Of a stretch of DNA of 64,000 bases, positions 1-64,000 are shown piece after piece. The notes beneath the pieces were generated by a model that worked only from the letters and a program-made list of their open reading frames with translations, was not told where the DNA came from and made no database searches. The stretch comes from Ascidiella aspersa (Eukaryota). The stretch covers positions 29,698,001 to 29,762,000 of the forward strand of contig OZ004607.1 in NCBI GenBank assembly GCA_963924565.1. The letters are read 5' to 3'. Position numbers and translations under genes: made by a program. Positions within the stretch are counted from its first letter, which is position 1; the number at the start of each line of letters is the position of its first letter.

Positions 1-42
1 CAATAGGTCTTTCACCTGACGTATTTATGTGTCGAATTTAAG

Positions 43-6244
<6,202 letters not shown>

Positions 6245-30815: not shown

Positions 30816-31821
30816 TTGTATGTGATAAAAAGATTAATATATTTCGCTATAAAGCATCATCAGTATCTAAATACATAACACAAATTAAGATTTTTGCTGT
30901 AAAATTAAACATTTTACCTCTTTTTCATATAGCCGAGCGATTGAAACGCCCACAGTACACTAATGTACATGTTTGATCCCGACGGCAGTCAATAAATTCC
31001 CGGTAAGCCTCTGCAGTCGACTTCTTGCCAGCCTATATAGTGCCGTTATTAAATTGGCAGGATTAGCTCGCATCTTGTGACGAGAGCGGCTTACACGAAG
31101 AGAGCGAACCTACACACTTAGACCTGCGCATTTTTCCAGGAAGAAGCAACTGAAAACTTGCGCAAATGCAGGGTTTCAACCGCGCTCGAGGTAGCGGAAA
31201 GTGAAACATTTTCAAAAAGGTCGTAAAGTTACATTTAGGCGAGGGCATTCAGATTTTAAGCAGGCTTTTGCTAACAGGATCATTAAGAAAACGTTACACA
31301 GCAATTTGTAGTTCGTTACCCGATGAAACAATGAATTTAAAATGTGATTTCGTGCAACGGTAGTGATCTACTTATTATGCACAATTTGTTGGCCTTTTTT
31401 ACCTTTTACTGCCGGAAAACATTAAAGATAGAGAAGAGGCTTGCTGGATACAGCTGCCGTCGAAAATCAGCCTGTCCATCATAATAATGTAGCGGCGCGC
31501 GCGTCGTAACGTAGCCCGAATCAAAATTGTCCGAGAAAATTCGATACGCCAGCGCCGAGCAGAAAGATATCTCGCTCTCACGCCACCGCCGTCCTTGCGA
31601 CATCTGACCCGTAAAGACACAGCGACAACCTGTAATCGCGACCCGGGCCTTTAATGTTTTTGTAAAGGCACGAGATACGGTAGAGAGCTGATAGCGCGGG
31701 CGCTGATTGTTTTTGTTTTGCTCACTCTGTTCACAGGTCGTTAACTTTAGCACGTAAGGCCTGAGTTGCAGCGGGCGCTGCCACATCACAGGAAAGTGAC
31801 GGAGCGGGAAATGTCAGCGGA

Positions 31822-34800
31822 ATGGCCGCCGCGCTCGAAACGCAAACGAAAACGACGGTCAGCGATGGATCACAGGCTTGGAAATGTCCTGAGGCGACCT
31901 TCGAGACTTCGACGGAAGACCAGAGTTCACTGGCTGGCACTCAAGTCGCACTTGAAGCGCACTCGAGAATTTCCGAGTCCAGCAACAATTCGCCCAAGAG
32001 CCCAGGCCGCTATTGCCGCTTTAGCCAGCGGCCTCAACAACAACAAAAACAACAGCTACAGTCCACTACTATGTCCACTGCCCGGCTTCAAAGCGCTGCG
32101 ACGCGTGAAATCGGAGACCCCCTGGGCTGGGAGGCCGAAACACCCGGGCACCAGGGCGTCGTAAACGGAGACTTCCGCTGGAACCTGTCGGCGCTCAAGT
32201 CATACCAGGTCGGCTCGACCAGCGCCATCTACTCGTCGCTGCAGAACATGAAGCACATCACCGCAAGCATGGAGAGCCTAGCGCGCTCGCGGCAATCCGG
32301 CAAATCGCCCGTCAGCGGCGGCGAATCGTTAAGGGCGGCATTCGACACGGTGCCTGGCCATCGTGACGCAAGTCCAGGGGGCGTGACCGACCCGCCGGCC
32401 TCATTGCACGGGGGTGCTTCGGCGCTGCTGGTGCGTGACGACCGCGAACAGCACTCGGCGTTGGGCGCGCAAGAAAAACGCCGACTGGCTCAGCCGACGC
32501 GCCACACTTGTCCGCTCAGGCGCCCGGAACCGAACCGCGCACCCATCGTCGCCGCATTGGACTGGCCGAGGACAGCAACAGCAGAAGAATCAGCACACTT
32601 AACGCGCGCCGCAGATGCGAAAGAAGCCCTTAGCGCTGATAAACTCAGTGACAGTCCTGAGGTGACGAACTGTCACGACGCCGCGGAAGTTTCGCTCAGA
32701 GCGCGCCGCCCCAACGCCAGCCGCAGCAGTCCTGTGGCTGCAGCTAATCAAATTTCAGACGAGGAATCCCATTCAGAGGCGGAACGCGTGGCCGTTCAAG
32801 TTGTTAACCACAGCAGCGGCCATTCGGCGCTCGACTCGCTAAGGCAAGGAGCCTTATCCAAGTTAGTCGACTGTCACCGTTACCGTTGTGCAGAATCAGC
32901 AGCAGTTGTAGACTCGCACCTCGTCGGAAATAAAAACAGCAACAGCAGTTCTTGCCGTTCGACAATCGCACCCGGGTTCAATGGTAATGTGCTGAAGCCC
33001 GGGATTGTTTGTCGTGAATCGAGGCACTCTCTCTGTGTGACTTTCGCCGACAATGTTCCAACCGCAAATGGAAGCGTAAACGGAAAGAGGTTTGGATCGC
33101 TCGCGGACCTACGGAAGGGCAGAGCTGCACCGAGCGGCAACAGTAGCCATCAATACCCATTCGGCAACAGCAACTGTTTTACCCGACCGGTAGAATCTTC
33201 GCCTGAAAACTCGGATCGTAAGCGTCAGTGCAAGTCGCTGACCGACCTAACGGCCGAGGACTTTGTGAGCAGCCCCTGTACTTCCATTCACGACCGTCGC
33301 CAGCAGCAGAAACTCTCCGCCAGCCAAGTGCAGCTTCAAAGCGGCACAATGAGCAACGGCAGGTCACGCATCGTCAAGTTGATCACGGGGCACAGTCGTC
33401 CCACTGCGCAGGTAACGTATGTGTGGTGCATAATTGTGTATTGGCTGTGTTTGGCGAGGGCTCGCGCGTCATGCGTAAAGCAAATTTATTGTAGGGTGTA
33501 ACACGATACGAGGAGCCCAGTCGTCGCGTGAGGAGCCGCGAAGCGCCGACTTACTTGTTTCGAGAATAATTGCCTGTACAGCTGCTGCCTGTATAACTGT
33601 GTAGCTGTCCAGTCGGGCTGTATATCTGTGTGTAGCCCACTGATCGCGCTCACATTTTGTATTTCGCCAGAGCGGTTCGGCGTCGACAGGCGTCGCTTCC
33701 GACAAGCCGAAGAACATGACCAAGCGAAACGGAAGCAACGGATTACGTGGTAGATTCAAGGCCGATCCTAGAGCTGCAGTTGACAAGAAAACAGGCGGAT
33801 CGACGCCACCGGGGCGAATCGGCAGCGTGAGCTCGTCAAGCGGCTCCGAGGTTTCCGATCCGGCCAAGAGCCCTGCCCTTAGCGGCGGCCGGAAGGCGCC
33901 AAAGCTGCCCAAGGCCCTGTTCCCGTTTATGCGAAAAAATCGCAAGCGCCAAAGCGCAACGGCGTCGGGTACCACAACGTCAACTACAGCATCAGCAACG
34001 CAAAGGCAGCCGCTCAAAGCGCGTGGGCCAGAACCGGATTCAAAAGCGCCCCGCGACGAAACGGATCAAAAGACAAGCGTAAATACGAAGCAATCAGCCC
34101 CGAAAGTTGAAGAAATCGGCGCTGATCCATCCCCGGCCGTCGGTTTCCGCAAAATAAAGGCGAGTTGCAATAGAAAAATAGATTTCCTTGCGCATCCCTT
34201 ATAGTTGTCACAGGTTAGGTTACCCCGAGCGTTGTTATTTCCGCTGTTGGAATCATATTACTATAGGCGCAAGTTTAGATTTCAATCGCTCGTCCAGCGT
34301 GCATTTGGCTGCGATTATGGTTGACCGGCTTCAATCAGCGGCAAAACGCGAGCGCCTTTCAATTACAAGAAATCGGTCGATCGCCAAATTGCTGCTATGG
34401 ACCGTAATTTGGGGGTGATTTCGTCGGAATGGCGACTGTGCTTGCGAGCCTATGCGCTGATGCCGTGCGAGACGTTTAACCCAGTGTGCCGCAGTTACGG
34501 GATCTGCAGCGGTCATTTCGTGTTAAAAACGTAAAGCAGGCGTGGGTTCGGTTTACGTAGCCCGTGCTTAGCATTTAGACCCAAAATAAAAAAAAACCAA
34601 TGGTCACTGGGCAAATCGGTAATTTCAGCCTGCCATACAAACACCGCGCCACTTTAACGAAAAGGACAATATTGTTAAATTTAGATCTTAAATTTACCTA
34701 CAACTCAGTATTGTGGGTTGTCGTAAAATAATAACACAAAAATGTAATTTGTTTAGTTTAGCAAAGGTCTTAGTTTCTAAAACAAAGCTTCGTCCGAAAA

Positions 34801-37800
34801 TGCGACTTTTCTTAATATATTGTTTGGCACGTAATTCTCGCGCAAAACAAAGAAGGGAGTTTACAGCAGGCTATTCCATCGGCAGGGGATCTTTTAAAAC
34901 AACTTTTGTCGTGCAGCAGTGGAGTTTCGAAATGGAACGATCTTCCTTTGAACTTGACACCGCGCTGAAAATTTTATTTATCTAAAAACATAACAACAAA
35001 GTCACGGTAAAACGAAACCGAAAATCGCTCAACAGCTTTCATTTAGCTTGATGCCTGTACCCCTTTGTAGCTGCGATCTGACGCATTTTTTACATTGGCT
35101 GTATTATAAATTGATCCCTCCTTTATGGTAGATAGGAATCGCTGTTTAGCTATTCAGTAAAAAGGCTTGGGCTTTAGGATCTTACCATACGCTTTAACAA
35201 CGTTTTTTCATTCTTGTTTAAAGGTATGTTGTGGTATTTTAACGTCGTTTAAACAGCACACCAACGTGTTCAAAGCGGTTAATCATTGCCGGCGAGTGTT
35301 CCCTTACCAGAACTCGGTCAATTAATTACCGACGAGCCGCACTCGTTCACGGCCGCGTCGCCAAGACCGTTCGATCGCTCACGATTATGACATCACGGCG
35401 ACTCGATGGTCCCTCGGCGCGCAATAACAATGCGACGCCCTTCCGTCATCAACAGCTCGCTATATATATATATACGATCGAACGTGTATAATACGAAGAA
35501 CGTGTTTGCGCGAGCGGCGACACTTGTAGTTGCATTGTCCCGCGGGACCGGGCGACCCGTCAGTCGGGCAGCAGCGCGTAACCCTAGCGCCTTTTTGTGC
35601 CGACCGTGTGAGCGCTGTGGCCACAACAAACCCTCCGATGCCTTTTGTGTGTCGTGTTTCTTGCGCCCGATTGAAATCCAACAACCCAAAGCCCTATAGG
35701 TGGTGGCAACTTCGATACATCGCCCGGCCGCGTATCCTTTCGCGTTTTGTTTTTGCTTTTTGCGCAGTGTTGCCGGTGCTGGCGCGCGGGGTGGGGCGCA
35801 CTGGCGTTGTTTACCGCTCTCCTTGGAATTTTTTTGGGCCAGGGCGCCTGGTATTCGCGGCACGCGTGAACACCTGCGGGTTGATTTATACGTTTATTCT
35901 GTGCCTAAACAAGTAACTTTGAAATGACCCCAGTCAAAGATAAGTCAAGTCAATTTGCCCTAAAATGTCAATTTAAGTCTTTCAAACCAGTGACTATAAA
36001 GAAATCAAACAAACATTTAGGACTAAGCGTTAAGTAAATGCTTTTACTAGGCATGGTCTTTGAAGGCAATGTTTTTTTTGTTATATTCAAACAAGAATTT
36101 CCAAAGGAACTTCGAATTAACTACATCGTTTTAGGACCGCCTCTTTATCTAGGGCTGGAACGTGATTCCTAACTCAGCTTGTATTTTGTGCACTAGGTCA
36201 ATTCGAGTCCTGGCCGGAGGAACGTCCATGCAGATTACGCGTCACGTGTCACCAGGGAACGGAGAAGGTCGTCGTCAAATGACAGAAACGGTAAATAACC
36301 AACCTTTGGAAGTGTTACTGTAAGCACAGTTTTACGACCAAAGTTCCAGCTTTTTAAAATTTGCTACAAAACGTGTGGCGTTGTTTTGTTTCTTTAAAAG
36401 GTCAAAATCTGATAAATTATTACCCCCCCCCCCCCCAAAAAAAAATGCAGTAATCCACCCAACCGTGCGCATGCATTTTAAGTAGTGTAGAATATTTAAT
36501 CACACTTTGTCTGATAAACATAGGCTATAATTAAGGCGTATCGTAAACTACGTCATCATACCACACTTTAGTTAGAAATATGCGACAAGATATTGTCAGT
36601 TTTGTTTTATTAATTCCCTTATCCTCAAATGCCAGGAAACGCCTATTTTATCGTCTCCAAAATGTTTTGAATTCCCCAATAATACAATACAGCATGGCGA
36701 AGAAGATATAGACAGTGCCTCGGGCAAGACATATGTTACGAATAGGGTTTCTCTATGATCGCGCATCTTATATTAAATAACAACAAAGTACGTGTGCATA
36801 ACACGATATTGGCATATAATACGTCAAAATTGTAAGGTTAATCAATGCGATAGCCTCACATGACGTTAGATTTTTGCAACAGTGTTTCTTAAGTGATGAA
36901 TAGTTTACCCTGGGCCTCGAGTCAAAGAGATTTTTGAATAGTGAACCAACTATAGTACGGGTAAACGAGGGTTGAATTATTTATTTTTTATACTGCTATT
37001 TGTACTCATTGCGAAACTTGTACCGATCCATAAAAAAATCTTCCAGTGAACATCTTTCGCCGTGAATTTACCATAAAAATGCAGTCAATTCAAGAACAAC
37101 AAATGTTTCTACAACAACAATGCGTCCACAAACAATCTCGCACCCACTGTTGCTTATGTCTACCACGTACAGTCGTACAATCTACAAATTTGGCGTTTGG
37201 GCGAAGACATACAGTTTTCTCTGCTAGGGGTGATTAAAACATGTAAAGAAACACTGTATTTCTACGGAAATCGCCATTGCGTTAGTTTGCGTGCAACGTT
37301 GTTTTCTTCCATAAAAAGTGTGCAATCTTCACGCATTTAGACAACACAATTTAGGCGTTAAAGATGGCTCCATATACCATTGCTGCTGCAATTGGCAAGC
37401 TTTAATGCAACAACTTATTTTGCGAAATCAACCCTGTAATTTAGTAGTATGGCCGAATTTGGCGGCCTTTAACTCTTTTAACTTAAACTATGTGACTCAG
37501 TTTGCAGGTATTTCAGAAAACTCCTAATTGAGACGGAACGAACCGCTCCCAATTACCAGAGTAAACCATAAGAGAAATTGTATCCCTTTGCAAATCCTAT
37601 TCGGTCCGCGCCCAAAACAAGCCGCTTTCGTCCAACTACGACGTTTACCGAGGCTGAGCTTCTCGTCCTGTTTTCGAATAATTATGGCATTTTGATAAAT
37701 GGAATAATTTGTTTCATTTTTGTACATTCGTCTCTCTAAACTGGAAAACGGGCCATTGCTGTGTATTACACGAAACCGTACACGCACAGCGAAGTTGCGT

Positions 37801-40800
37801 TTCTTAGCTGCTTTGGCTTTTACCAATTATGGTCAGGCTGGGCGACGAGGCGCTAATTCGAACTCCGAGCCCACTTAGGTATTTTTGTGAGGCCAACCGC
37901 TCGCTGTATAATGCGTTTACTTGGCCACATCGAACAAGGGCGATCAGGCACCTTTTTGTAGCACATTTTGACCTTTATTTACTCCTAGTTCAGTAACTGC
38001 GATTCTCACCAGGTATTCACGTTTAAATTCCAGCCCGCGAAAATAATAGGTTTCTGACTTGTGCTGCGTGCTGTAATTGTCTTGTGCGGTTGAATTGCAT
38101 TATTTTGTGTTTAAAAATCACACGAGACGGGTAGAACTAAACCCCATATACAAGGCGCCTTTTAATGCGTAAAATTTATATTTAAATTTTAGACCTTGCT
38201 GACTGATTGTTGTTTTTAGTGCGCTTCTCAAGCTATATACAAATAATTTAGAACTTTAATCGTCGGCCTTGTGTGTTCTGTTGGATTGCTAGATTCTGTT
38301 GTGGAAACACGTACTTAGCTTACTTTACAGAAAACCAAGCTTTTCTTCTAAAAAGCGCATTTAAGCATAAATTGGATCCGGCTGCCTTTGACGGGCTGGC
38401 CTGCAACGCAATGCGGCGTGTTGGCACCGGAAACCGGCATTTGGACGCTGGCGTTACTCTTGCGTTCAACGATCAACTGCTTTATTTCCTTGCCGAATCG
38501 AAGCCGTCGCCTCGGGTTATGGGAGGACGACGAAGTGCGATGAAATAGTTTTGCTGACGCGCGTGGCATTAATTACGTAATGCGGGATAAGGTCCAACCT
38601 TGATTAAGATTACCTTTCTGTAATGCGGCGGAAGAGATTAAAATAACGTGACCGTGAACAAAGTAAAAGAGCCTAATGGCGTCGTTGGTCATCCCGGGCA
38701 CACTTTAGAATGGATTAAGATATTAAAGCGTTTAAAATATTTGTCCATTTCTTTTCGCGTCCTGAGGTATCTATATGCTACTGTGGCCAATTCCAATAGA
38801 ACAACTACGATTTCGACATCAGCCATGTGATATTATACTGTTAATACATCACGCGGACTAATGTAGGAAGTGGTGAAAAATATTCAATGAAATGATCCCG
38901 ATGCGATTGATGTATATTTCAGTCTTAATCGTCGCTTTTCCAGACCGCCACTTAAAGCTTCGGTTTGCACAAGCTGACATACCTACTCACATGACGAACG
39001 CGCGTACCTGTACCTTGCATTTAAAATTCCGATTTAGCCGCGAAGTCAAATCTTTGCAAAAGCGAAAGACTCCTTCTTGAATCACAGTTTCGTGCAGTTT
39101 CCGCCATTTTTATAACCGGTTTAAAGAGTTTTTAGCGTGCCATGTTTTTTTGTCCAACACGTGTTTTTACCTCTTGGCATGTTTATATGCCCACTTTGAA
39201 ATGAGCTAGGAATAAATTTGCAATCTCGGTTTTCTTCTACCTAACAGATGTTAACACAACTATGTGCTAATTGATGTGTTCATGTAAAGAGGCTAACGAG
39301 TGGTTATTAAACGTAGATTATAGATACAAGTACAGATTGTCTGCATTTCAATTTCACAACCCGTTTTTTTGGTAAAATGTCACACCAAAGCGTTTAAAGG
39401 GCAGCAAGCAAAATCAAAGGTATCCACGCGCATCGGTCCATCGAATGCAGCGCATTAAGCACACAAGGTCGCACGGACTCCCCAGGACTTAGATTGGCGG
39501 TTGTTGTTTTTGGGCGAGCTCGCAGCTGCCCGGCCACCCTTGGTCCCGCAAAAACCGCCACCTGCGAAGCGTCATCCGAGCCACCCGCAACAGCAGCGAG
39601 ATATGGAGAGATGTACAGCGCGATAACGCGAGGCTTCTGTCTGTCTCCAACGCTTTGTCTCTGTTCTCACATTAAGCCACTTTACGCGGCCGTTTACATA
39701 AGGGCCGGCTCTGAATTTTTGCCACGATTCGTGACGTTTTCGCACTCTTTAGACTGCCGATTTTTTATTGAGTGATGAAATGGAGTCTACACTTTCCCTG
39801 TTTTGTTGGAAAATTAGTGGGAACGTATAGAGGAACACAGGGACCAGAAAAACATTGTCGGCCTACTTTTAACTGGCCACGTAAGACGGCCGATTCGCGG
39901 TCGCTAAATGCGCATCTTGCTTTGGCGTTTAGAAAACAAACAGCAGCTCACGCGAGCAAGATTAGGCTCTCAGTCGTCCCGAGGCATTCCGTGCATAACG
40001 GGGATGGTCGAACCGCTTATTTGCATCGTCACTCATTCTGTCGGGAATCGCAGTTAGCATGGCCGCTCTGCTTTCAAGATGAAACCGCTTAGTGCTGCCC
40101 AACTTACGGAGTCGGCTTCGAATACAATCATATTTAATACTGACAAAAAAAACTTCTCGACTTCAACAAGACTTGGACTCGTACCAATAAAATATAGCAC
40201 ATTAAACGGCAAAACAGCTCATAAAAGTTTCAAATACACAGATGTAAATTAACATTTAAAAAAAAATTAAAATTTCGAAATTATTTTTTTTGTCGATTAG
40301 ATTTGCAATTCAGGTGCTGGATTAAATGTTAAATTAAAAACACGTATTGTATGCTTAACGAGCGTTCACAGTTTTGCTCAATCAAAAACGTAAAATTGTC
40401 TAAAATATTTATGTTTTAATCAACCAGCGATTTATAAACATGCTAAAAAACGCACAAAGAAGAAACAACACGTTCATACATTTTTTTTACATATTGACAG
40501 CAAAGCCAAATTACGCATCGTAATGGGTCAGTTGCGACATTAATTCTCCAATTTTTAGCCGCCAAATATCTGTCTGAGCACGAAATCCCAATCAATCCAT
40601 TTACGATTACAGGTTCCAGCCCGGTTGCCTCCGAAACGCCGGCGTCGTCGGCGCCAACGCCGGCTACAGAAGCGACAAAAGCGGTCCGCCGCAGCAGCGG
40701 CAGCTTCGACGGCGTTGTTATGAGAGCTGACGCCCGGCCGCGACGCAAGCCCAGACTTCGTTACAGCGTCGAGATCTCGTCCAGTTCGGAGCGTCTCGAC

Positions 40801-43800
40801 TCGGAGCAACCTGAGAGGCCTGTTTCTTTCACGGGCGGCGAGCGCTTCCTGATCGGCGCTGGCTCTTGCGACCCGAGTGTTACGTCACAGCAGAAAAGTC
40901 AGACAGTTACCGCCGCCACGGCCGATGTCCACCCCGGCAGGTCGCTCCTGCAAGCCAAGGGGCGCAACCACAGCTACGCGGCGCGCCAGTCGACTGTTGA
41001 AGATGAGCAGGCTCGAGCGTTGAGAGCCCAGGCAGCCAACAGGTAACTTTAACCACGCCCACCGGTGCTACTGGTGAGCGTACGCCGGTGGAAAACGTTT
41101 CGCTTGCGTGCTTTAGAGGCCCCCAGACTATACTGGCTCGCTGGTTGGATACTCAATGCTTAAAGCAGTGTTTCTCAGCCTTTTACGACTAGCGGAACCC
41201 CTCAGAAATAATAAGTAGATTGCGGTACCCCTATAAGGTTTATCGTACGCAAATCACTAGAATGTCACCATAAACGTAACTTGAACAAGACACGTCAACT
41301 CTACACAACGTAGAAAGTTATAATTAGATTTATTAGATTCTAATTTTACACAAAAAGTTATAAGAGTTTAGCAAAATCCGATTCTTAAAGATTCCCAAAT
41401 ATGCCGCGGCACCCTTGAGGATAGAAATGTCACCCCGGGGTGCCGCGGCACCCCGGTTGAGAACCACTGGCTTAAAGAAATACATAAGAGCCATCAATAT
41501 AATAAATGTGACGAACTTTTCGTAATTTTTTTTAACATTCGAAAGGAAGTATTTCCAGGTGGCTTTGCTGGGGATTTTACTCTTGCAAAAATAATCTTCA
41601 CCACGGGATTGGTTGTTTTAACTATGTTGCATCTTGTCTTACTTTATAACTTCATACCATTTTGTTACTTTCTGGGACTGCTTTAGTTACAAACTGTGCT
41701 TGGAAAGTTGTGTTGCCCTTCCACCGGACTTCAATGTTCAAGTTCTTTACGCTCTACTTGCAAACAGTCGTTTTTAAGCTTGTTGCCAGACTTGGGCGAC
41801 TCGATAAATTCCAGGTTTTCTAATTTCATAAATTAGAGCAAAAATGCGGCTAATTCGAATCTAATTTATGCAATCGGGCTTTTCATCTATTTGGACTTCA
41901 ATACGGTTCAATGTGCTTTGTGCATGACCCAGCAAAACAACCGCAGAGATGACGCACGACTTGGCTGTCTAGCGTTTCTTTGCGAACTCGCGTTCTTGGT
42001 GGGTGAGTCGCCGTGGGTGTAGCTTACTCCCTTCATTTCCCGAGGAATTCGTGCGGTTTGGAATGAATGGGCGACGAGGAATAAACGGCGTCCGGGTTCA
42101 CTGCCGCACAAAAACCTCAATTGACATAGGGAGGTACCATCAGCGCGCGCTCGTGTGTGTGTACGTGAATCTCAACTTTCCTAACGTTAGAATTTAGAGC
42201 ACCATGATAAATTTTTCCCGGAACTACATTTGGGCTGACTTTATTCCAATAGTCTTCTATTTAGGAATGCGCAAGGTTTGCTTATTTAACGGCGCAGGGC
42301 CTTAAGTGGGAGCAAAAATATATAGAAACGATCAAATTTAAAGCACCTTTATAAAATATTTCCCATAACTACATTTAGTTGACTTTGTTTCAATAGTCTT
42401 CCATTCAGAATTGGACAAGTTTTGCTCATTTAATGGCGCGAGGCCTTTAGTCTAAACAAAAATTTATTGAAACGATCAACAATTTACACCCGTTCGGCTT
42501 TGAGATTCCATGGACCCCAAGCTAATCGCCTACCGCGTAAATTAGTATCTCGTAGTTCCAGAGCTGCAGTTTTAAACTGTCCTGGCCGGGCTTTAAGGCT
42601 ACATCATCCTGTGGAATGTTTGTTTAAAGGACTTCGACTGAATTTCACGCGCGGATCTTGATCAATATTTGCGTGCTATCTTTGCTAAGCACATTAGGCC
42701 GTCGGGTAAACATGAAGCGGAAAACAGAATCGATTTCATCTATAAGAGCATCAAAAGCGGCCAACACTTTCGTTGTTTTGCTTGCACTTATAATTTGTTG
42801 CACCTATTTGGGAACAACGCCATATGCCACTGTCAAAATAAACGGTGGAAGCCTATTGCTATTTTAATGTATTTGTTATTATAAGAGGCCTAAATTTTAC
42901 GCTTTTCGGCCATCAATCGATTCCCCTTATCACTTCCTATAGTAATTTTTCAGAGTTTATTTAAAATCCGGAAGGTACTCTTTACGATTAAGTGTGCGGA
43001 TAATTCAATGATGGACAGCTTGGTAAACAAGTAAAAGAAGCCAAGTTACGTATCATTATGGTTTCTCAAGCACGTTTAATTCAAAGTCATTACATCAAAA
43101 CATAAATGTTCAATTAGTAACATTTTCAACGTCGTTTGACTCCAATAGCACACCGCATATCCCCAAGGTACAACTACGCGTATCACACAAACGTGTAGTT
43201 ACGCCAAGTTTGCCCAAAATAAGTTTTACGAAATGATAATCACAAGTCAAGTCATTTTAAATGTGCTCGTATGGTCATGTGCGATTGGTTGTAGTCAAAC
43301 AAGGCTAACATGTCTTGTTTTTCTATTTATTTAAATTTTCTGTCAATGGGACGAAAATATAATAAAGTTTTGAAATAATTCAATTAAACAATGTTTTCTC
43401 GGCACTTTAACAATGGTACAAACAGCCAATGCTCACCAACGCGGATGCCATAGAAGACGACCAATAAATGTTTGCACTTTCTTTTCGCAGGCGTTCCCTA
43501 AACCTGGACTGTCCGAACCTGGCCGAGCGCATTACATTCGTCGCTTCCCTGCCCGGACCGGAGACGGCAATCAACGGGAGCAAGAGCAGCAGTTGCCTGA
43601 CCGGGATCAGCACCCCCAGGTCCCACATGGGGCGTCTCTCGGTGCCCCACGGGGCCAGTCTCTCGTCCAGTTTCGCGTCGGTTTTCGAAGACGAGTTGCT
43701 CGCGTCCAACTCGAGGCCGCTTGTCGTCGGCGATTCGGAAGCAGCGAGCCCGCCAGACGACGGGGAATCTCCAGTTCGCGAGCAGCCGCCGCCAACGCAG

Positions 43801-52800: not shown

Positions 52801-54327
52801 GCTTAATTTCAATACAATCAAATTGAACGACTAGACAACCATTAAGCCACCCGTATAGCTCTTTATGTTCAAATGAATAAATCGCTATTTAATGTGGTAA
52901 CCTTTTACGCAAAAAATTACCGGCAGTTCGGTTATTTAGTCTGACACAATTAGGTTTACGTCAACCTTAATGACAGACCAGTGGCCTGATGCCAGTAGCC
53001 CTTTTTGCATCGCAAAAAATACGCCTCACTATGCAAAACACATTGTCTAAATCAGGGATGTCCAACATTTTTTTATCGTGGGCCGCATTGACACTTGAAA
53101 TAATTTAATGGGCCGCAGAACCTATTAAGTTTCAAGATTAAGTATTGCTCTTCAGAGGTATAACGGGCCTTTAGACTTATATATATATATATATATATAT
53201 GTATATTGCTCATACTATACTATTAGTGCGCCCCTAAAAGCTGACTGGTACATTTTAATTATGCTAATATTGAACGTTTAAAATACTACTAGGAAGTGAA
53301 AATGACTAGCGGGCAGCACAAAAATTTCAGACGGGCCGCAATGTAGCCCGCGGGCCGCAGGTTGGACATGCCTGGTCTAAATTGTTTGCAAAGTTAACAA
53401 AACCGGTTATTAATAAAAAAATGATACGCTAAATCTTTCTTGCAATAACTTTCGTGTTATTTATCGGAGAACTTAAAATTTTCCAGTTTTTTAACTTGTA
53501 TGAAAAAGGATGACTTGCGAACAAAAGTCGTGTGAACAGTCTAGCGTAGCCTTCTAATAAGACTGCTCCATGTGTTTTGTGTGTTGTATTAAAGTTATTG
53601 ACCTGATGTAAGGCAGTTTTCCATCTACCCTTTCCTACAAGCATCACATGGCCTGTGTCAACAACAGTGTTGTAAACAAGTCACTTCCAAATGACTGAAG
53701 TCCCAGTCAAGTCATTTGTAAAATAACTCAAATTAAGTCAAGTCTTTGTCAACAAATCACAAGTCAAGTTCCAGTCAAGTCATAGTTATAGCAAGTTAAT
53801 TCCATATCTAGTCCTTGTTATGAAAGTAGCGTTAAACTACTAAAATTAGTAAACTAACTCGATTCCAAGCAATAACCCAACTAAAAAATAACAAAAACGT
53901 AACATATTGCAAGCAGATTGTTTTATGTTGAAAAAAATATATAAAAAAAGCCTAATAAAACCACATTATGTTAACCCAAGTCATTTGTCCAAAAGGTTTA
54001 AGTCAAGTCAAGTTAGGTCAAGTAATTTGAAAACAGTGATTTCAGTGCACTTAAGTCAAGTAATTGACTTAGATAAACAACTAACACAATTATTCTCATT
54101 AATTTTCACCTGGTCATAACAGATGCCAGAATTAACAAAAACACTCCTGCTGTTTTAGTACTACGCCGAGCTCTACTGTTCCTGCCGGGTGCCGATCGGG
54201 GGCTACCAGCCTCACCCAACGTCAGCAGTTTCGGGGGCAACGAGGGTCCCAGACCAGCTATCCCCATTCGGCCAGGGCCTTTCCTCTCCCGACGGGCGCT
54301 CCAAGGTGCGGGGAAGCACCGTCTCAG
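31822..54327 (+). CDS. large uncharacterised Ser/Arg-rich, likely disordered protein; N-terminal ~1427 aa of long isoform; continues beyond window
   Basis: Ten GC-rich exons join in frame with matching phases: 31822-33411, 33671-34159, 36197-36290, 40613-41042, 43491-44257, 46811-46965, 49344-49507, 50444-50768, 52278-52376, 54159-54327 (phase-1 donor). Acceptor at 31735-36 and an in-frame TGA precede the ATG. No stop reached and no domain recognised. Confidence 0.8.
41166..41469. mobile_element. hAT (Charlie/Buster-like) MITE
   Basis: TIR CAGTGTTTCTCAGCC / GGTTGAGAACCACTG; perfect TSD GCTTAAAG; GCGGCACCC repeats. Confidence 0.9.
42206..42490. repeat. diverged tandem duplication (~143-bp unit)
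   Basis: Two copies of ...TTCCC..AACTACATTT..TGACTTT..CAATAGTCTTC..GTTTGCT.ATTTAA.GGCGC..GAAACGATCAA. Confidence 0.75.
44288..44709. mobile_element. hAT-type MITE, GAGTCGGA-repeat family
   Basis: TIR TAGGGCCGCGGAGTCGG / CCAGCTCAGCAGCCCTA; TSD GTTTTGAC / GTTATGAA (6/8). Confidence 0.75.
48480..48710. mobile_element. partial copy of GAGTCGGA-family MITE
   Basis: Colinear similarity to 44432-44620. Confidence 0.65.
53053..53374. mobile_element. hAT MITE containing an (AT)n microsatellite
   Basis: TIR CAGGGATGTCCAAC / GTTGGACATGCCTG; perfect TSD GTCTAAAT; GGGCCGCA repeats. Confidence 0.9.
53665..54083. mobile_element. AAGTCA subterminal-repeat non-autonomous transposon
   Basis: Imperfect TIR CAGTGTTGTAAACAAGTCA / TGACTTAGATAAACAACTA; arrays of AAGTCA at both ends. 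Confidence 0.65.
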
Positions 54328-57300
54328 GTGGGTAACTTTGTTTTTCGCGAGGACCATTTATGTTTGGTAACCCTACAGGTTTTCATGTTTGTCGTCACGT
54401 ACTGACTACTAATAGTCTCGAAGATGTGACAATTAACTTTAGTTACGAATCAGTAGATTTAGACCTAATAGCGATTTCGACTGGCATTGGTAAATCAGCA
54501 AGACAAGCCTCCACCTGTATAGGGCGTGCGTGTGACTTTCTGCTGAGCTTGATTTCTTCGAAAGGTTAATGGGACGGCAAACACGCCTGTTGCAGTATTT
54601 GCGAGAAACCCAGGCAAAGTTGTGATGTGTTGTGTCACGAAAAACACTTTCAGCCTTGGCCAGCATGCGAAGTATGTGACAGGACTCCTAACATGAACCA
54701 CGCATGACGACCATATACAAGCGAACTTTTAATCTGGCGTTTCTTCAAGAGAAGCCAATTGCAGTTCTGCACTTCTATTTTCAACGCGATCCCAAGAAAA
54801 CTTCAATTTGTTGAAAATCTGACGTCTGCCACGCAGTTTGCTCATATTTGCACGCAAAACGTACGTATTTGGCAGGGATCCAGCGTGCGTCGTCGATAGT
54901 ATTAATTACGAGAAAGGTCACGCAAACGCGGGGCACATTTAATTGCCATTTGACGCTCTCACGTCTTCACGCACGGCTATTCTAATTTATATATTTGGCA
55001 ATGCACAGTCACGGCCTAATGGCCCTTCCCAGCCTTTCGCGACAAGCACAGATGCAGAGCTTTTACGTACAGTAAGTTGTCGAGAGTTTGCAAAGGCAAC
55101 GCGAGTGAAAATAACCAGTATACAGCTGGTCTTTCAATACAAGTATAGTGTTGCTGCCAACCAATTCAACGAATACGGCCCTTTGAGTACGGTCGCGAAT
55201 TTGAATTCAATGCCGTCCGCCTGTCACACTGGATTGACGCGAGAGAAGCGGTCAATGTACGCACGCGGCCATTGTGACCGTAATATCGCGACGGGACGAA
55301 AGCGAACAGACGCATTCACCAGGAAAAGAGCTTTTGCATGATTCGAAGTCCATAGGAAACCGTTCCAGCTTGGCCATGGATACTGAGAATACCTGGCTTT
55401 TCGACACAGTTTGTTGCTGCAACAGTTTGATATATAACGAGGGGTGAAGCACGATCGCCATTGCTTTCGTTTTTAGTAAGAGCAAAGGTTGTTAAGTGAA
55501 AGTCATAGTAAAACGGTTGACTACAACTCACTGTCACCACATAGTTTGGGAATGCAGATACATGCAACTTAGTTAACGCGGTCTTTGTTAACAATGTAGA
55601 CTGTTGAATATAAACTTACAATTTTTTAAAGATTTGCCTTTGGTAAGAAAGTTAGTTTAATAGAAAGAACTGAGTTTTAGGCGTTTACTAGTGATTTTTG
55701 GTGGTACGTTTTGAAGCAGGCGAATCCGTAAATTTAAGTAGTTTTCTGTTTTAAAAAAATCGAGGAAGGAGATCTGTATTTCAAAATTATGCTAATTTCC
55801 AAGTAATTTTTTTTTCGGTAATTTCTTTTGACAAGCTGATCGCAAAAGGAAGCTGTATGTGAATGAGATAACGATTTGCAGAAAAGTAATTGTTAAATTC
55901 TAATCGCCGCTGCTCAACTGATTCGTTCAATATCTGGACATATGGAGTGTTAAATTGCACAGGAACATATACGTTTTATATGTATTTAAATATTAATAGC
56001 AGTTTTTGTGATACCAAATAGCGAGTTTCTAGTAAATTGCAAACCTAAGGATGACGTAATTCTCCTTAAAACCAGATTAGCAGAACAATAAAAAATTTGT
56101 TTTTTTTAAATATATTACTTTTTGCTATGAATTGATATGTTTAACCGCATAGTAACAATATTCGATATATATATATATTTTTCGATTTGTGTCGGACAAT
56201 ATTTTTTTGCGATTCGTCGTGTCTGAACCAGGGATAGAACAATTCCAGTTGCGCTGTCGTATTTTGTTTTTACCCTAGTAATAACGGCTTAACAATTAAC
56301 CGTTCAGCAATGCGCAAACCACAACACCAGGAGCTGCCAATACGCGATTGGCCGATTGCTGTTGTTCTCGTGAAAGTGCGTATACAGTACAAGCGTGCTG
56401 TGCGCCAAAACGCGTGTCATCCCTGTTTGGCGCGTCACTCGCCGAAGGTGGAATTGCCTTAATCACGCCCATTGCATCGTCGATTGCGAGTCATTTAACA
56501 AGCAGTACATGTTTCGGCTGGGTTTGTTTTGATTGTGCTGTAGAGAACAGTACTTCTTAACCCTAAGGGTCCGAGCATTTCTGTTGCGGCAAGAGTTTCA
56601 CTTTTTATCCCTTTGTTTTGCGTTCCTATGCCCTTCACTTGACGTTATGCTTGTTTGTGCACTTTCTTATGCTCACACAAAATTCAGAATCGTACATCAC
56701 AAAAATGTTTGGCGCTTCTGATTTTGGTATGATACTAATTTAGTACTGAAGAGGTGGACGTAACTGTTAAAGTATAACTAAACAAAGGACAATATAAAGA
56801 CAATAAAAAACACTGCATAAGGAGAACTATAAAACATTATAGCACCAATTTTCAGCATGACAATTTATATAGTAGGTTATATAAACGGCCAGTCTGGTGC
56901 GTTGAAAGTGTCACGAACTTTCACTCACGGAATGTGACCTCACTCTTTTAAAAACAAAAAGTGTAGAATTTTAGTTTTTCATCCACAGAGCACATAGTGC
57001 AATTTTAACGACAAATAATTTTTGGCCTTGGCTTACAACGTATAAGTACGTTTTACATTCCTCGATGATTGATTTGCAAATCAGTCCACAATTAAAGCAA
57101 AAAGGTACCACAGTCATTGAATATTTCCGATGTTGGATTAATATGATACACATTGCTGCTATAAACAGGATCCTTTGGTTTTATAAATTATTTAAGACAA
57201 ATTACTGTTTTATGCACATGACGATAATGTTTCATATCTTCTTGTATATTAAATCTCGGGAGTCCCCAATATAAATGTACAAAATCTATTTAATATGAAA

Positions 57301-59968
57301 GAATCAGTATACGTAATGAGCGCGTAGAATATATGGTGAATTTATATTAGTCCAAAAATATCCGAACCCGTGACTTCTAATCCGACAATAGACACTTTAA
57401 TGTGTATATCTTCTATTTTGTGAGCCCAAATCTGCCCGTCTATTTTGCCATCTCGGTTTTCCGGAAATCCCGAACGCGCAGTAATTTTAGCAGATGTCTC
57501 AGAACGCGCCGGAACTCGGCAATACTGAATTATTCCTTGGGAGGGGGTGGCATCGCGCGCGGCCGACGGGCGTACACATCTGGTAAACTATTAAAACACG
57601 GGACTTGCGTCATGTCAATTCTCGCGGCGTCACCATCGCAAAAGGCATGTCGGAAGTAGCAGCGGCCTTTAAACAGAAGCGCAGTCTATTTTGCGTCGAC
57701 TTGGGTCACCCACGTAATTTTGTCTGGAAAAAGGGCGACTGGCGTTTTTTTGCGCCTTAAAATCACGCGCACAAGCTGACAGACGCAAAGCTGAATCGGT
57801 TGGAGTCCAGCGTCTGTGTATAAATTATTGCAAGCGGCGGCCAGGGTTATTACATGCAGCAGCGCGAGTATATACGCGGATCCGTAATAACTTTCGACTT
57901 GACGTGAAAACAGGAGAGTTTAGCTTTTCTCTTAGCGGCTGTCGGCCTGTGTGCGTCCAAACGCGATGCATAATTTATCGTGTTTATAGGGAATCGATGT
58001 GTTCCAATGGGGTGGGCGGGTATAGGCACTGCGTTGAAGCAATAGCAGTAGCAGCGTAGTAGTAGTAGTATCGACCTGGCGTCGTTTATCGACCCCTCCC
58101 TGTGTCTCTTTGCAACGTGAATGCTTCCACGTGTACCGAAGTTGCAGCTGTGAAACTTCTCAAACGAAAACGGAAGGTGGACCATAAAAAATTGAGAGTT
58201 ATTTTTCAGTCGACAGGCCCAAAGTCCGACTGCGTCGGTCAGATGGACGCGCGACGTTTCAAACTTTCAGTTTCCAGACTTCAGTCGCATTAGCTGTTCG
58301 CAAAACGCGCATTGCGTCGCGCTGAAATGCCAGAAAAATCCGATCGTTAACGATTGTGAGGTAATAGTTATTTGAGGATGATTCAGTAGAATTTTGTGTC
58401 GTCACAGTAACGATTTCGTGCCCAGTTAGGATTATTTAGAGAAAAGGACCAGAGACTAAGGTCTCGTGACACGCCTCAAGACATGGTCATATTGCTTTGC
58501 AGTTGGGTAAGAGCACTTTCTTAAATTCTAGACGGCCATACTCAGCGTGATCTAACGTTTTGTGCTTGACAAGTCTTTAGTAAGTTTAATGCACGTGGCA
58601 GACTCCTGTTATGCTTAACTATAGCGTTTCTGATTTTTTTCAGGTTTAAAGGAAAAATTAGAACAGAACTTTTTTTTTAGTAAGCATGAGGCATTTTTTA
58701 TGGGGGTTCGACAGGTTTATTTTGAACAAGGCGTCATAAAAATCCAAAATTAATAGTGACTATATCGTTCAATAAACTAATTTAACATAATTGCGGGAAA
58801 TGGCAATATTTAGAAATTGCCTTCGTTTGTGTTAATAAATACATAAAATTGGACCTAACGTGTCGTTGGTTTTAATTGCAGGGTTGTGCATTCAAAGCCT
58901 TAAATACTTATTTACCTGAAACTTGCTGTATATAGTTTTGTATCGCTAACAGACACGTAGTGGTAGAAAGCAATTCAATTCACTGCATCAAACAAATGGT
59001 ATGTGACACTGAGTTTTTAATGTTATTGATTGCGCATCGTCTATGATTCAAAACTTATATTAAAAAGACATTAATAGCTTAACTTAATTGTCATTTGTTT
59101 TCCCGGAAATGGGCAAAACAATGCCCCATTGTTTTGTGACAGAGCAACTACCAAGTTAGGAAAAAGCTTTGTCATTTGTTGTGATTGTGTGCGCCCGTAT
59201 GCAGTTCAGGCGTGCTACCAGTCATGGTATTTTTTTTCGGAGTAAATCGATTCAGTTTGCGAGAACCCGTCCGTAGGTATTTGCCTATTCGATATTCCAC
59301 GTTTTTTCCGCCTCTGACGTGCCTTGGCTCTGAGTCGGGGATTTCCTGACTTGAGTTAAAACACGAGGGCTATTTTAGTCGCGCCGAGTTCAATTTGCGG
59401 CGAGCCACTTGACTTGAATGCGGCAAGTCCTTCAGATGCTCTTTTGGTGCGAGTCGGTGGCCTTTGCCGATTAGGTTGCGGTAGCCGATGATTGCTAGTC
59501 GTCGAAAGTGAGCTGGCGTTTTGCTGGAGTGAGTCACACTGTTTTGATGCGCGGCGACACTGCATCGGCAACAGTTGCTGTGTTTTGTTGGTATGATACG
59601 TTGCGGTGGATGGCAGGGGTTCTTCTGCAGGGTTTCGTCAGACAAATCGGTGACTAACCCGGTTTATGGGTTTTTATTTGCAAAGCTTTTATCCAGGCAA
59701 GAAACGAGGCAGTTAAAGCGCTTGTCTTGTAGTATCATTTTTTTAGATTATTAGAAGGTCCTACAAGCTTCCCAGAAAGCGTTGCAAGACCCCTATTAAC
59801 CCAGTTTCTCCGTTTTTCCTCAGCGCAACCGCACACAATTGAGCAACGATATTATATAGGCAATCCGTTAGGAACCGCTCGATTTGCACCTGAACTTTCG
59901 AAACGTTTGAAGAGGACTTACACTTCGCGTCAAGAGTGAAAAACAAGGCGGAAAGAAAACAGAAAACG

Positions 59969-60218
59969 ATGCAGCGATTCCTGCTGAGCGTTGGCCACGG
60001 CTACGCCAACAAAATGATGAGAAAGCACTCGCAGAAAAACCAGAGGTCTGCCGTGAGCATGCCTAACTCGCCTCGCAGCCCGGTCGAGATCACATTCGAT
60101 CCGATCCCGAAGACAGTGAGCTCGGAGGACGTGACTCCCAGGAGCCCGATCCGATCCAGAATGCGTTCCAGCATCCGGCGTTTGCGCCGCACAAAGAGCG
60201 CCCGGAAGTCTAAGAAAC
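59969..60218 (+). CDS. putative alternative first coding exon B of the third gene
   Basis: ATG-initiated MQRFLLSVG...RRLRRTKSARKSKK, GC-rich, in-frame stop upstream, donor C|GTAAGA in phase 1. Confidence 0.65.
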
Positions 60219-62838
60219 GTAAGACGGAATCTCGCGATTGTTTATAGGCCCCTAAAAGGCAGGAAACGCGAATCACTGTTTTTAGGTTGTGATACACTGA
60301 GGCGATCTCTCTCAAGCTAATTTAAAAAATCCGAATTTTTGGAAAGGATAACTTTTATTTAAAATTACTCTGAGTTGGCACTAATCTTGTCATTTTTTTT
60401 GGTGGTTATAGTTTGTAGCTTTTTTCCCTGAAAAATTTGGCTATTTTTTTAATTCTAATCTAGGAAAATTACCTCATATTTCGCCTTTATAGATTGCTTT
60501 TATGAGTTACCGAGGTAAATGAATATATTCCAGGAAATCGATTAATTTTGACCATTTCGATATGTTGTGCAATCTACTACTAGACTGTAACCTATTAGCA
60601 GTTTGTGGCATAAAACTTGCCTAGACTTGCGTCCGACGTGTTTCCGACAGCCACGCGTGGATTTTTGTTGCTTGATTGTCGTGACGTGTGCTGTGCACGT
60701 CGAGGCGCCAAGTGTTTATTCCCCGCCACCTCATTTATGTCGACCCATAGGGCTGTAAAAAACGAAAAGTGCCAACATGGGTATTGGGTAGGTGGCGAAC
60801 GTATATACAAAGGCACATTAAATCGAAAAGCGTGCGGGTGTCAATGGCTGATAACAAAGTGGCTAAAACAGGCTTTAGCCTCGGGCATTTGGTACCTTAT
60901 AATGTGTACCTTAAATTTTAAGGGTCGGTAAATTCCAATATCTGTAAGAATTAGAACATTTTTAAACCCGTTTCACTTCGACTTTTTAGGGGCAGACGAG
61001 GGTCCTAAGGGGTGAGTGTTATTTGTCAAACAACGTTCGTCCAAACCATTTTCTGAGAAGATGGCTCATAGTTCCATTCAGATGTTTAACCTTTTAGTAA
61101 CAGGAAACTAATCAGAAATGTACCAAAAAGGTAAAATCCCTTCGAAGCTGAAATACTAATCGTTTAGTAGGAGACGTCATTTAGTGCTAACCTGTTTTGC
61201 TAAAACGAAGAAGACGTGTACTTCTTTTTCGATGTGTGTTGTCATTCGATACGCGTAATCCTGCTTTGTGTAGTGTTTTGCCGCAACGACCAGGTTGAAC
61301 GTGTTTTTCTTCGAACAGTCTAATTGCGCGCGTGCACGATCTCTCTCGTAGCAGCGCTTTAATTGGTCCACGCAGGTCGAGCAAAACACGTCTGAAGTGC
61401 CTTCGCAGAGGCATTAATTTTCCATACGGAATGCTTTCACTACAACGTTATTTTAAGGTGTTCCATGAAGAATGGCGACAACAAATTTACAAGTCAAATT
61501 ATAAGGCTATGTATAAACTATGTCCTTTTCTAATTGCATCAAAGAATATATCATAAGCAAGAATCCTGGGTATTTGTTTCTTAATCACAGAGTTGCATCT
61601 ACATTTAACTCCGAAAATTTAAACGTTTTTACTAATTTTCTATACACAAACGCTACGATGTTGGTTTTGGCGTTAAACAGTGTTCCCGACTTAAAAAAAT
61701 TCCACACTGAGAAAAGTTTGTATTTATCGAGATTACTTTTAGGCTAAGTTAGAGTCCTAAATAAAAAAATAATCCCTTAAAACTAGTAAAATTAGAAAGA
61801 TGTCTGATCATCCAGTGACTTAGAAGCAAATTTTACGAAGTATATATTGTGCTGCAAATTGGAGCACTGGTGTTGACTATCTCGAACATAAAAAAGGGAT
61901 GATGTCAGTTGTCAGAGTGGAAAAGAGATTCTGCAGCCGCGACGGCGCATGGCCCTTTGAAGCGGCCGAGAAGGCGCGATTAAAAAAATCACTTGGCACC
62001 TTCAGGCGTGTTTTAATCAGCATTGTAATGCGTCGAGCAACTATCCCCTTGCACACCACACACAGCCGCTGTGATTGGCAACCGCTCGGAAGCAAACACA
62101 TCGACCGGAGCCTTTGTTACGAGGCTGCGGGCAGAACTGGCTGTGCAAGAAAAGAGAAGGTCGCCGCTGGGGTTGTTCGACCGTTAATTGCGCGCTATTC
62201 CTGAAGACCTGGCGATGGAAAAAAGCTCCATCGATAAGGCTTGAGACGGTGGCGATCGATCAGATCTATTGCTCTGCCCTTGTGTTGTTTTGAGGGCGGT
62301 GGACCGATGATCGTTGCTTGTTGCTATTGGCCTTGTGCGTACTATGCAGACACGGTTCAGTCGAGTTCAGATTATGTTTCGTTACAATTGCGTTTTAATG
62401 CGCGGTTTAGCAATTAGCCGCGCGCCCGATGAGGGATGTGGTAAAAGCATCACGTGACGAGTTTCCTTTTGCGTTGTGGTTTTCAGCTTTGTTGAGGCAG
62501 GCAGAAGCACTGGTCAGTTCTTAGGTAGACTGTTGTCACGAGTTCTTGTTGTAAGTATATGGTAGTGTGATTTTTTGTGTTAAATTAAACTTCACGACTT
62601 GTAAATGTGAGTTATGCAATTGCCGAATAGAAAACTGTTCTAATGGTAGTTTGCTACTGTGTAGGAAAGAAGTTGTAGTATCACACCACAGAGGTCAGTA
62701 CTACTAGATGTTCTTGCAGGCGATCAACCTTATGTTTCTGCTACTCAGAGTATATAAACATGTAGAAAAGATGTTGCCTTGTGTTCGCCGCAACGGAAAG
62801 CCATAAAACTTGCCAAGAGCCGTTGTTCTGTCCCTGGC

Positions 62839-63472
62839 ATGTCGTCTCCCAACGCCGTGGGCGCGCGTCGTAAGGGCGAGGAAAACAAAGACGGGTCGTT
62901 GAGTAACAAAAGGCTGACGTCGCAGTCCATTTTCCGGGTCTTTACCAAGAGCGGGCGCTTTCTTTTGCGCGGCTCTGCGGGCGGCAGCGTCAGACGGAGT
63001 GCAGCGTCGTCGAGCTCTTTCGTCCAGCCTGGCAGCAGCTGTAGCAGTGAAACCAGCAAGAGCAGTAGCTTCATCAAGCAAGTGTACAGTCCGAGAAGGG
63101 AGCTGCTGTGTACGGTGAGCGCGCCCCTGGCCGGCGGCGTGAACATCAACAGGGAACTGACGATCCGGCGCAGCTTTGAGGTCAAACGCGACAGGAACAA
63201 GGTGGCGGACAGCCGCTTCACACCGCAGTGTCCACGTTCTACCGCCGCCACCAAACACGACCTGTCCTACCAGGGCGTGCGCTCCCGAGTCCAGTCAAGC
63301 GGTCTTTATACTGAAAGCCTACTGATTGTGGACAACGAAGACGACGACGACGAGCCTATAGAAGACGAGGACGATGTATTCGATTGCAACGTGGCACTCA
63401 GACCTTCGCCGAAACCTCTGATGCGAAGCCACACGCACCCCAAGCAAAAGACCAAGTCCGTGTCCAGCGGCT
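62839..63472 (+). CDS. putative alternative first coding exon C of the third gene
   Basis: ATG-initiated MSSPNAVGARRK...KTKSVSSG, 211 codons, in-frame TAA upstream, donor T|GTGAGT in phase 1. Confidence 0.7.
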
Positions 63473-63677
63473 GTGAGTTGGACAGCCATATATGTCTATC
63501 GCATTTTTGAAAGAAACCTGTGGCCTTTGCTGGTTCTCTACGCGTATTCTAAAGTAGGATAGGAGTTTGTTTAGCAATTCTGGTTTGTAATTAGTGAAAA
63601 ACAGAATGCAAAGTGAAGTGTACCGTTTTTTGCAAGGCAGCAAGCTGTTCTATGCGTTTATTTTTGTTCTATGCGGT

Positions 63678-63762
63678 AAATCCGACCGATTCTAGTTAGA
63701 AAGACTTTAGAAAAACACTTGTAACCTAACAAAGTCTTTCTAAACTAGAATCGGTCGGATTT
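63678..63762. repeat. near-perfect inverted repeat (31-bp stem, 22-nt loop)
   Basis: AAATCCGACCGATTCTAGTTAGAAAGACTTT ... AAAGTCTTTCTAAACTAGAATCGGTCGGATTT, differing by a single indel. Confidence 0.9.
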
Positions 63763-64000
63763 TAAAAATGATTTGTTTGTATTAGGAGTAGTACAAGAAA
63801 TAACAATTGAAAATGTCAATCTATGTGATTAAACCCATATGGTGTTCTTATTTCCTAAGCTATTATCTAGAAAATCTTCTAAAAACTCAGCCAAAAAATA
63901 ATACCGATACGTGTGGATCGACTAAACTTAATCCGTTCTTATATCGCAGGTATTTCCAACGAGTCGGGGTATGGAACCATGACCAGAAAGGGAAATCAAC

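Follow-up and report, generated by a model that had tools for sequence, protein, structure and literature searches.

The vertebrate guanine nucleotide exchange factors (GEFs) SPATA13 (ASEF2) and ARHGEF4 (ASEF) share an SH3-DH-PH core, and in both a peptide that binds APC sits just before the SH3 domain. PMC8100458 defines this APC-binding peptide and describes autoinhibition of Asef by the SH3 domain on DH-PH, and PMC7233598 describes several SPATA13 transcripts with differing 5' ends and with short and long disordered N-termini. ARHGEF9 (collybistin, also hPEM-2) belongs to the same group of Dbl-family RhoGEFs. Here we describe an ascidian gene in a stretch of 64,000 nt from Ascidiella aspersa (GCA_963924565.1, contig OZ004607.1, positions 29,698,001 to 29,762,000, forward strand; "the window"). 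From its matches the gene is ascidian pem-2, of the ARHGEF4/SPATA13/ARHGEF9 (Asef/collybistin) group, and its core is 47-51% identical to those of SPATA13 and ARHGEF4. Three alternative N-termini (heads A, B and C) precede this core. By the title of one paper, pem-2 is said to be a maternal, localized mRNA.

The three heads were rebuilt from the sequence, and every number given for them in the initial annotation proved right. Chain A (31822-54327) comprises 10 exons and 4282 nt (1427 codons plus one base), with an in-frame TGA upstream at 31762 and a phase-1 donor (CAG/gtgggt) at its end. The coding part of exon B (59969-60218; 250 nt, 83 codons plus one base) is preceded by a TGA at 59891 and ends at AAC/gtaaga; that of exon C (62839-63472; 634 nt, 211 codons plus one base) is preceded by a TAA at 62755 and ends at GCT/gtgagt. 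The constant region had been predicted to start beyond position 64000. It starts inside the window, where a common phase-1 acceptor (AG 63948-63949) opens an exon at 63950; scored against a matrix trained on 18 internal pem-2 acceptors (training range 1.8-16.5), this acceptor reached 12.6, the 99.7th percentile among the 2263 AGs. Joined to the ten constant exons, heads A, B and C gave reading frames of 2075, 731 and 859 aa with zero internal stops. The initial annotation had suggested that one constant region carries three N-termini, 1427, 83 and 211 aa long, and this is supported by the open frames and by the Ciona savignyi isoforms described below, and the phase-1 acceptor exon that it had proposed to look for (63950-64050) is followed by SH3, DH and PH domains. 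Its claim that nearby acceptors do not chain the heads together also held: two of 46 AGs before B (59912, 59936) and three of 48 before or in C (62770, 62800, 62890) would preserve the frame, but each of these sits in purine-rich sequence and scores poorly as an acceptor (2.2 to -13.8). The locus has several heads, each with its own start codon, donors of the same phase and one acceptor, as would a gene with alternative first exons and several promoters.

Pfam searches of single exons detected SH3 (E 1e-13), RhoGEF on three exons and SOS1_NGEF_PH on two, in the order SH3, DH, PH; the second PH exon falls under the Pfam cut-off. The closest solved structures were ARHGEF9 and ARHGEF4. The DH exon matched Asef at E 1e-27 and P-Rex1 at 1e-14, and its top database matches are ascidian, including Ciona savignyi PEM-2, below one sturgeon entry flagged as contaminated. 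Within the genome the DH exon has one strong match, the next best being at E 8e-5 (50% over 34 aa), and pem-2 is apparently single-copy here. In a tree of 23 rows, a 100/100 branch separated the five tunicate rows from the rest and the window gene was sister to Phallusia (100/99), which makes a phlebobranch ascidian the likely host. This tree is without a true outgroup and its long branches meet; the tunicates form a long branch of their own, and the nearest vertebrate paralog is not singled out. Judged by the tree, the single copy and the shared heads, the gene is the ortholog of C. savignyi PEM-2. A shark protein named SPATA13-like (P0170) nests within ARHGEF4 in the same tree and is likely mislabelled.

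All three kinds of head were found on C. savignyi proteins. PEM-2 (BAA36290.1/O96035) and its sister entries H2ZDQ9, H2ZDQ8 and H2ZDR0 have an SH3-DH-PH core 62% identical to that of the window gene; among their heads are homologs of C, of B and of the A tail, each joined before IS[SN]ESGYG, and the C-terminus RESSFVF is likewise common. PEM-2 is presumably a cDNA clone, and H2ZDQ9 and H2ZDQ8 we take to be Ensembl models. Head B aligned with the head of P0126 (H2ZDQ9) with 30 of 75 residues identical (score 110, 0/500 shuffles), the identities taking in the first residues, SMPNSP and the basic tail, and head C aligned with the PEM-2 (P0004) head with 77 of 182 identical (score 216, 0/500 shuffles). 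Entry P0124 starts within the A tail, and its match was again reached by 0/500 shuffles. The strongest of 12 mismatched head pairs was reached by 14/500 shuffles, so the matches are head-specific. C. savignyi P0124, P0126 and P0123/P0004 part at the residue before ISSESGYG, the point where A, B and C part, and the split codon of C yields a Cys at the joint, as in PEM-2. By these alignments the three heads and their joint are conserved between the window gene and the C. savignyi database isoforms. The keeping of two short heads and one long head between distant ascidians points to function.

The C. savignyi cluster (five members) has no full-length A form among them. Long proteins of Phallusia (CAB3262817.1, 1967 aa), Ciona (XP_002121633, 1975 aa) and Clavelina (CAK8677581.1, 1965 aa) are collinear with chain A plus the core, and only A-type heads were seen for these among the proteins fetched. 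The Phallusia core is 73% identical to the window core, and its head A shares 554 of 1240 aligned residues. Exon by exon, 28 of 30 comparisons exceeded all 200 shuffles: all ten exons against Phallusia, nine against Ciona (the exception being A10, 93/200) and nine against Clavelina (the exception being A8, 1/200). Eight of the nine introns of chain A are GT-AG; one GC-AG intron is required (donor at 34160), and the homologs are collinear across its junction. Exon 9 of A holds an in-frame Met, which may be compared with the start of C. savignyi P0124 in the A tail. An out-of-frame ATG lies at 31811, 11 nt before the A start, and its overlapping frame runs to 32161.

We examined the regions upstream of each head. 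A splice acceptor of the 5' untranslated region (UTR) lies ∼84-145 nt before each ATG, at 31736 (score 8.5), 59823 (10.6) and 62719 (6.9), and the A, B and C starts therefore mark first coding exons that are probably not the first transcribed ones. About half of Ciona genes are trans-spliced, and the 5' transcribed regions of such genes are G+T-rich, as stated in PMC4691747; the G+T-rich stretches are described as lying just downstream of start sites (PMC4691747 and PMC11155486). In the 25.9-64 kb interval, the two most G+T-rich of ∼127 non-overlapping 300-nt windows directly precede the B and C acceptors (Table 1). The 400-nt windows before B and C reached the 97.9-99.5th G+T percentile, and those of 16 internal acceptors the 1-81st. 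Because these stretches resemble the Ciona outron/promoter signature, B and C would have separate promoters, and A, B and C are each probably transcribed from a promoter of their own. Further G+T-rich stretches at 35590-35889, 51130-51429 and 27380-27679 (0.59, tied 4th-6th), upstream of A exons 3, 9 and 1, are candidate extra internal promoters.

The same three isoforms could also be made from one promoter, by a long pre-mRNA with spliced-leader trans-splicing at 59823 or 62719, or by one non-coding leader exon cis-spliced to A, B or C. An acceptor before each of the three ATGs would suit such a scheme, as would the frequency of trans-splicing in Ciona (PMC4691747). However, trans-splicing favours the first functional acceptor according to PMC11155486, and 10 acceptors come before B and C, which are 28-31 kb farther downstream; the stretches directly before B and C are also of the type described just downstream of start sites. 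We consider a single promoter unlikely.

Several observations weigh against three heads with separate promoters. Within 630 nt of the head A acceptor no stretch rich in G+T occurs (5-59th percentile), so that two of the three heads show the signature. G+T richness was first spotted by eye, the offsets were self-chosen and the background windows overlapped, so this signal is only a hint. The donor of C scores low, at 2.3 (82nd percentile), against the donor matrix of this gene, for which the training range was 6.3-11.9. An RNA run labelled with this species was aligned to 44001-64000 (∼6% of the run, 118 records). None of these records was spliced over the three head-63950 joints, and no joint had ≥3 reads; the sample is too thin to count for or against the model. 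Depth was <1 over exons, most reads coming from intronic repeats around 53.0-53.7 kb, and a few pairs whose first mate lay on the minus strand fell into B/C bins and introns alike. The intronic repeats that attract most RNA reads (53048-53730, 44300-44700, 48560-48700) show loose ends and cross-joints. For head B the single homolog is the UniRef entry H2ZDQ9, and searches with B alone gave no relative at E<=10 among 50 candidates.

The findings on B would fit a gene in which only A and C are used, B being decayed or rarely used and its Ciona match a gene-prediction artefact; B-type proteins of Phallusia, Clavelina and C. intestinalis were likewise not among the proteins fetched. This is very unlikely, since the 30/75 identities (0/500 shuffles) hold between species whose cores themselves are only 62% identical, the B acceptor and donor are strong (99.5th and 99.1st percentile), and the joint falls at the same residue. 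That chain A is a separate gene, or that B and C are cassette exons within A transcripts, can hardly be credited: the 11 head exons without a Pfam domain and the acceptor plus donor of B and C would allow it, but the Ciona, Phallusia and Clavelina proteins (1965-1975 aa) unite an A-type head with the core, chain A is without a stop, and inclusion of B or C via their good acceptors breaks the frame. Three heads on one core, each probably with its own promoter, is the reading that we prefer.

Table 1. Features of the pem-2 locus. Positions are those of the window, with the numbering extended past 64000 for the constant exons downstream of its end.
Feature	Position	Strand	Remarks
A exon 1, coding part	31822-33411	+	ATG 31822; 5' UTR acceptor 31735-31736; matches Phallusia, Ciona and Clavelina long proteins
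A exon 2	33671-34159	+	GC donor end AAG/gcgagt; homologs collinear over junction
A exon 3	36197-36290	+	94 nt; tblastn with Phallusia protein, 73% over 30 aa
A exon 4	40613-41042	+	5' end inferred from phase; alternative phase-1 acceptor 40559
A exon 5	43491-44257	+	Homology to ascidian long proteins
A exon 6	46811-46965	+	Homology to ascidian long proteins
A exon 7	49344-49507	+	Weak likeness to SPATA13 long-form N-terminus
A exon 8	50444-50768	+	Homology to ascidian long proteins
A exon 9	52278-52376	+	SVIGG motif, present in SPATA13 too
A exon 10	54159-54327	+	Phase-1 donor; tail matches Phallusia, Clavelina and C. savignyi P0124
G+T-rich stretch	59440-59739	+	Candidate outron/5' transcribed region of B; G+T 0.633, ranking second among 300-nt windows of 25.9-64 kb
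Head B exon	59824-60218	+	Acceptor 59822-59823; 145-nt UTR; ATG 59969; 83-aa basic peptide; phase-1 donor
G+T-rich stretch	62280-62579	+	Candidate outron/5' transcribed region of C; G+T 0.66, ranking first among 300-nt windows of 25.9-64 kb
Head C exon	62720-63472	+	Acceptor 62718-62719; ATG 62839; 211 aa; phase-1 donor
Constant exon 1	63950-64050	+	Phase-1 acceptor; crosses window end at 64000; pre-SH3 exon
Constant SH3 exon	65020-65232	+	
Constant SH3-DH linker exon	65802-66212	+	
Constant DH exons	67178-67357, 68504-68698, 69652-69819	+	Pfam RhoGEF on all three
Constant PH exons	70780-70911, 71545-71798	+	Pfam SOS1_NGEF_PH
Constant tail exons	72135-72229, 72401-72597	+	Stop at 72597

In the proposed working of the gene, the three coding heads (1427, 83 and 211 aa) would join in frame at 63950 to the SH3-DH-PH core. 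Each head would have its own promoter, followed by trans- or cis-splicing at the acceptor just before its ATG, and a transcript begun at an upstream promoter would skip B and C. By analogy with Asef, the core may be a Cdc42/Rac GEF shut by SH3 on DH-PH. APC is likely no opener of this core because the APC-binding peptide is missing. The heads, which are of low complexity and likely disordered, would have no part in catalysis and would serve as interchangeable address and control tags; promoter choice would set the place and time of action for the same enzyme. No Pfam domain was found at E<=0.1 in 11 head exons (all except A exon 3) and constant exon 1. The heads are rich in Ser, Pro, Lys and Arg (head B is 26% Lys+Arg) and keep short motifs, namely the basic tail of B, basic clusters in A, and RSHTHP in C, which we take to be a 14-3-3-type motif. 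An AlphaFold2 model of C. savignyi P0126 (30-row alignment) had a mean predicted local distance difference test (pLDDT) of 52 and a predicted template modelling score (pTM) of 0.41. Residues 1-122 were nearly all <50 pLDDT, SH3 and DH were confident and PH was poor; the placement of SH3 against DH-PH was too weak to use. The nearest tested parallel is the long form of human SPATA13, for which PMC7233598 gives a nuclear localization signal and a GEF activity lower than that of the short form.

Some further features of the gene and its surroundings were recorded. The 5' UTR of C contains three upstream ATGs. Two representative-library matches to B (P0339 and P0340) were rejected as chance; both proteins are long, and the matches sum 7 and 16 stretches. 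The sequence ESGYGT in constant exon 1 (63950-64000) is kept in all ascidian entries checked and would sit in all three isoforms; it resembles a beta-TrCP degron. In the linker exon (65802-66212) a Cys pattern (CxC, 11 residues, CxxC) is also present in the four other ascidian species compared and is a possible tunicate-specific zinc knuckle; two Ciona entries (P0002, P0125) are without it, and Pfam matches on the linker are only sub-cut-off. Vertebrate cores are ∼80 aa shorter than the ascidian core. Elsewhere in the window, 1-4607 holds the 3' part of an ABC transporter gene (Pfam ABC_membrane, ABC_tran; ABCC-like by eye), and 11543-∼24500 the gene of Chromatin assembly factor 1 subunit A (Pfam CAF1A_dimeriz, 14767-15063), with exon-like pieces at 17.8, 20.5, 21.5, 23.3 and 24.4 kb. 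In the extended numbering, open reading frames at ∼89800-100100 (+) and 108800-109300 (-) resemble by eye a C2H2 zinc-finger gene and a ZIP-type metal transporter.

We next compared the position of the head swap with that in relatives, using 63 isoform pairs from the proteins fetched that have the same 350-aa core, identical in sequence, but differ in head. The distance from the swap to the SH3 motif was 54-60 aa in 19 pairs and 48-49 aa in three (C. savignyi); the others were at 102-105 (14 pairs), 9-11 (9), 223-226 (5) and 756-758 aa (10, amphioxus), with three elsewhere. Pairs at 56-60 aa include SPATA13 of spiny mouse and three birds and ARHGEF4 of bonobo, pig and wrasse. Same-species pairs of SPATA13 and ARHGEF4 swap heads 56-60 aa before the SH3 motif and ascidians 48-54 aa before it; unlike ascidians, vertebrates have additional swap points at ∼10, 104 and 225 aa. 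In the window gene the swap falls where constant exon 1, directly upstream of the SH3 exon, begins. The vertebrate swap may likewise lie one exon before SH3, judging from the swap points at ∼56 and ∼10 aa in the proteins. The amphioxus ortholog has at least five N-termini (P0135, P0134, P0130, P0131, P0133), swapped 756 aa before SH3.

The APC-binding peptide was present in 156 of 214 fetched SH3-bearing proteins. Unlike SPATA13 and ARHGEF4, tunicates are without it: it is absent in the window and was found in 0/11 tunicate entries (4 species), 0/4 amphioxus and myriapod entries and 0/8 ARHGEF9 entries, the last for the exact peptide. By this mark the gene is not a strict, APC-stimulated member of Asef/Asef2. 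ARHGEF9 gave the top SH3 match in solved structures and has a core 47-48% identical, and the tree does not group the ascidian gene with ARHGEF9 alone. Heads B and C and constant exon 1 showed no likeness to 17 vertebrate, amphioxus and myriapod N-termini (no z >2.1). The A tail reached z 2.6-3.0 on two of the same 17, which is marginal over 68 tests. In hhalign, the A tail matched SPATA13 at E 0.042, with three decoys at 0.21-0.65, through short collinear motifs. The SPATA13 profile landed on the same A exon-7 motif in 4/4 ascidians (3-8 bits, 0-15/300 shuffles), and similar scores were obtained in amphioxus and a myriapod at other places.

A tentative and rather doubtful scenario is that the swap point one exon before SH3 is ancestral to tunicates and vertebrates and predates APC binding, with long and short heads from separate pre-vertebrate promoters. 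Vertebrates would then have split the gene into ARHGEF4, SPATA13 and ARHGEF9 and gained the APC peptide, and the C head would correspond to the maternal posterior pem-2 RNA. If so, promoter choice picks the GEF head that is sent to the posterior pole. The matching swap position and the collinear short motifs of the A tail and SPATA13 speak for an ancestral swap point; the A tail-SPATA13 likeness is weak, however, constant exon 1 has no such likeness, and amphioxus swaps 756 aa upstream.

The feature is real and largely known, as the gene is known and public databases already list its three heads for another ascidian. The literature searched, which was mostly non-subscription and did not include the original pem-2/hPEM-2 papers, yielded no description of pem-2 isoforms or promoters. 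The full three-head model for ascidian pem-2 is of modest importance. The RefSeq-type models examined for Ciona and Clavelina have the long form only and PEM-2 has the C head; since these differ in head, pem-2 knock-down and in situ experiments may address different isoforms unknowingly. The locus also offers a single-copy system for asking what the N-termini of Asef, Asef2 and collybistin do without APC.

The initial annotation had likened the locus to PDE4/dunce and to GAP/GEF genes. The GEF side of this analogy stands, pem-2 being an SH3-DH-PH RhoGEF by its domains. PDE4/dunce genes place a variable 5' cassette on a constant catalytic core, and pem-2 is alike in this layout; its protein is unrelated, and the PDE4/dunce side was rejected, no phosphodiesterase domain being detected by Pfam in the constant region. 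The head cassette of pem-2 is real, conserved and ordinary in kind, and a specialist would not be surprised by it, as alternative 5' ends are known for vertebrate SPATA13.

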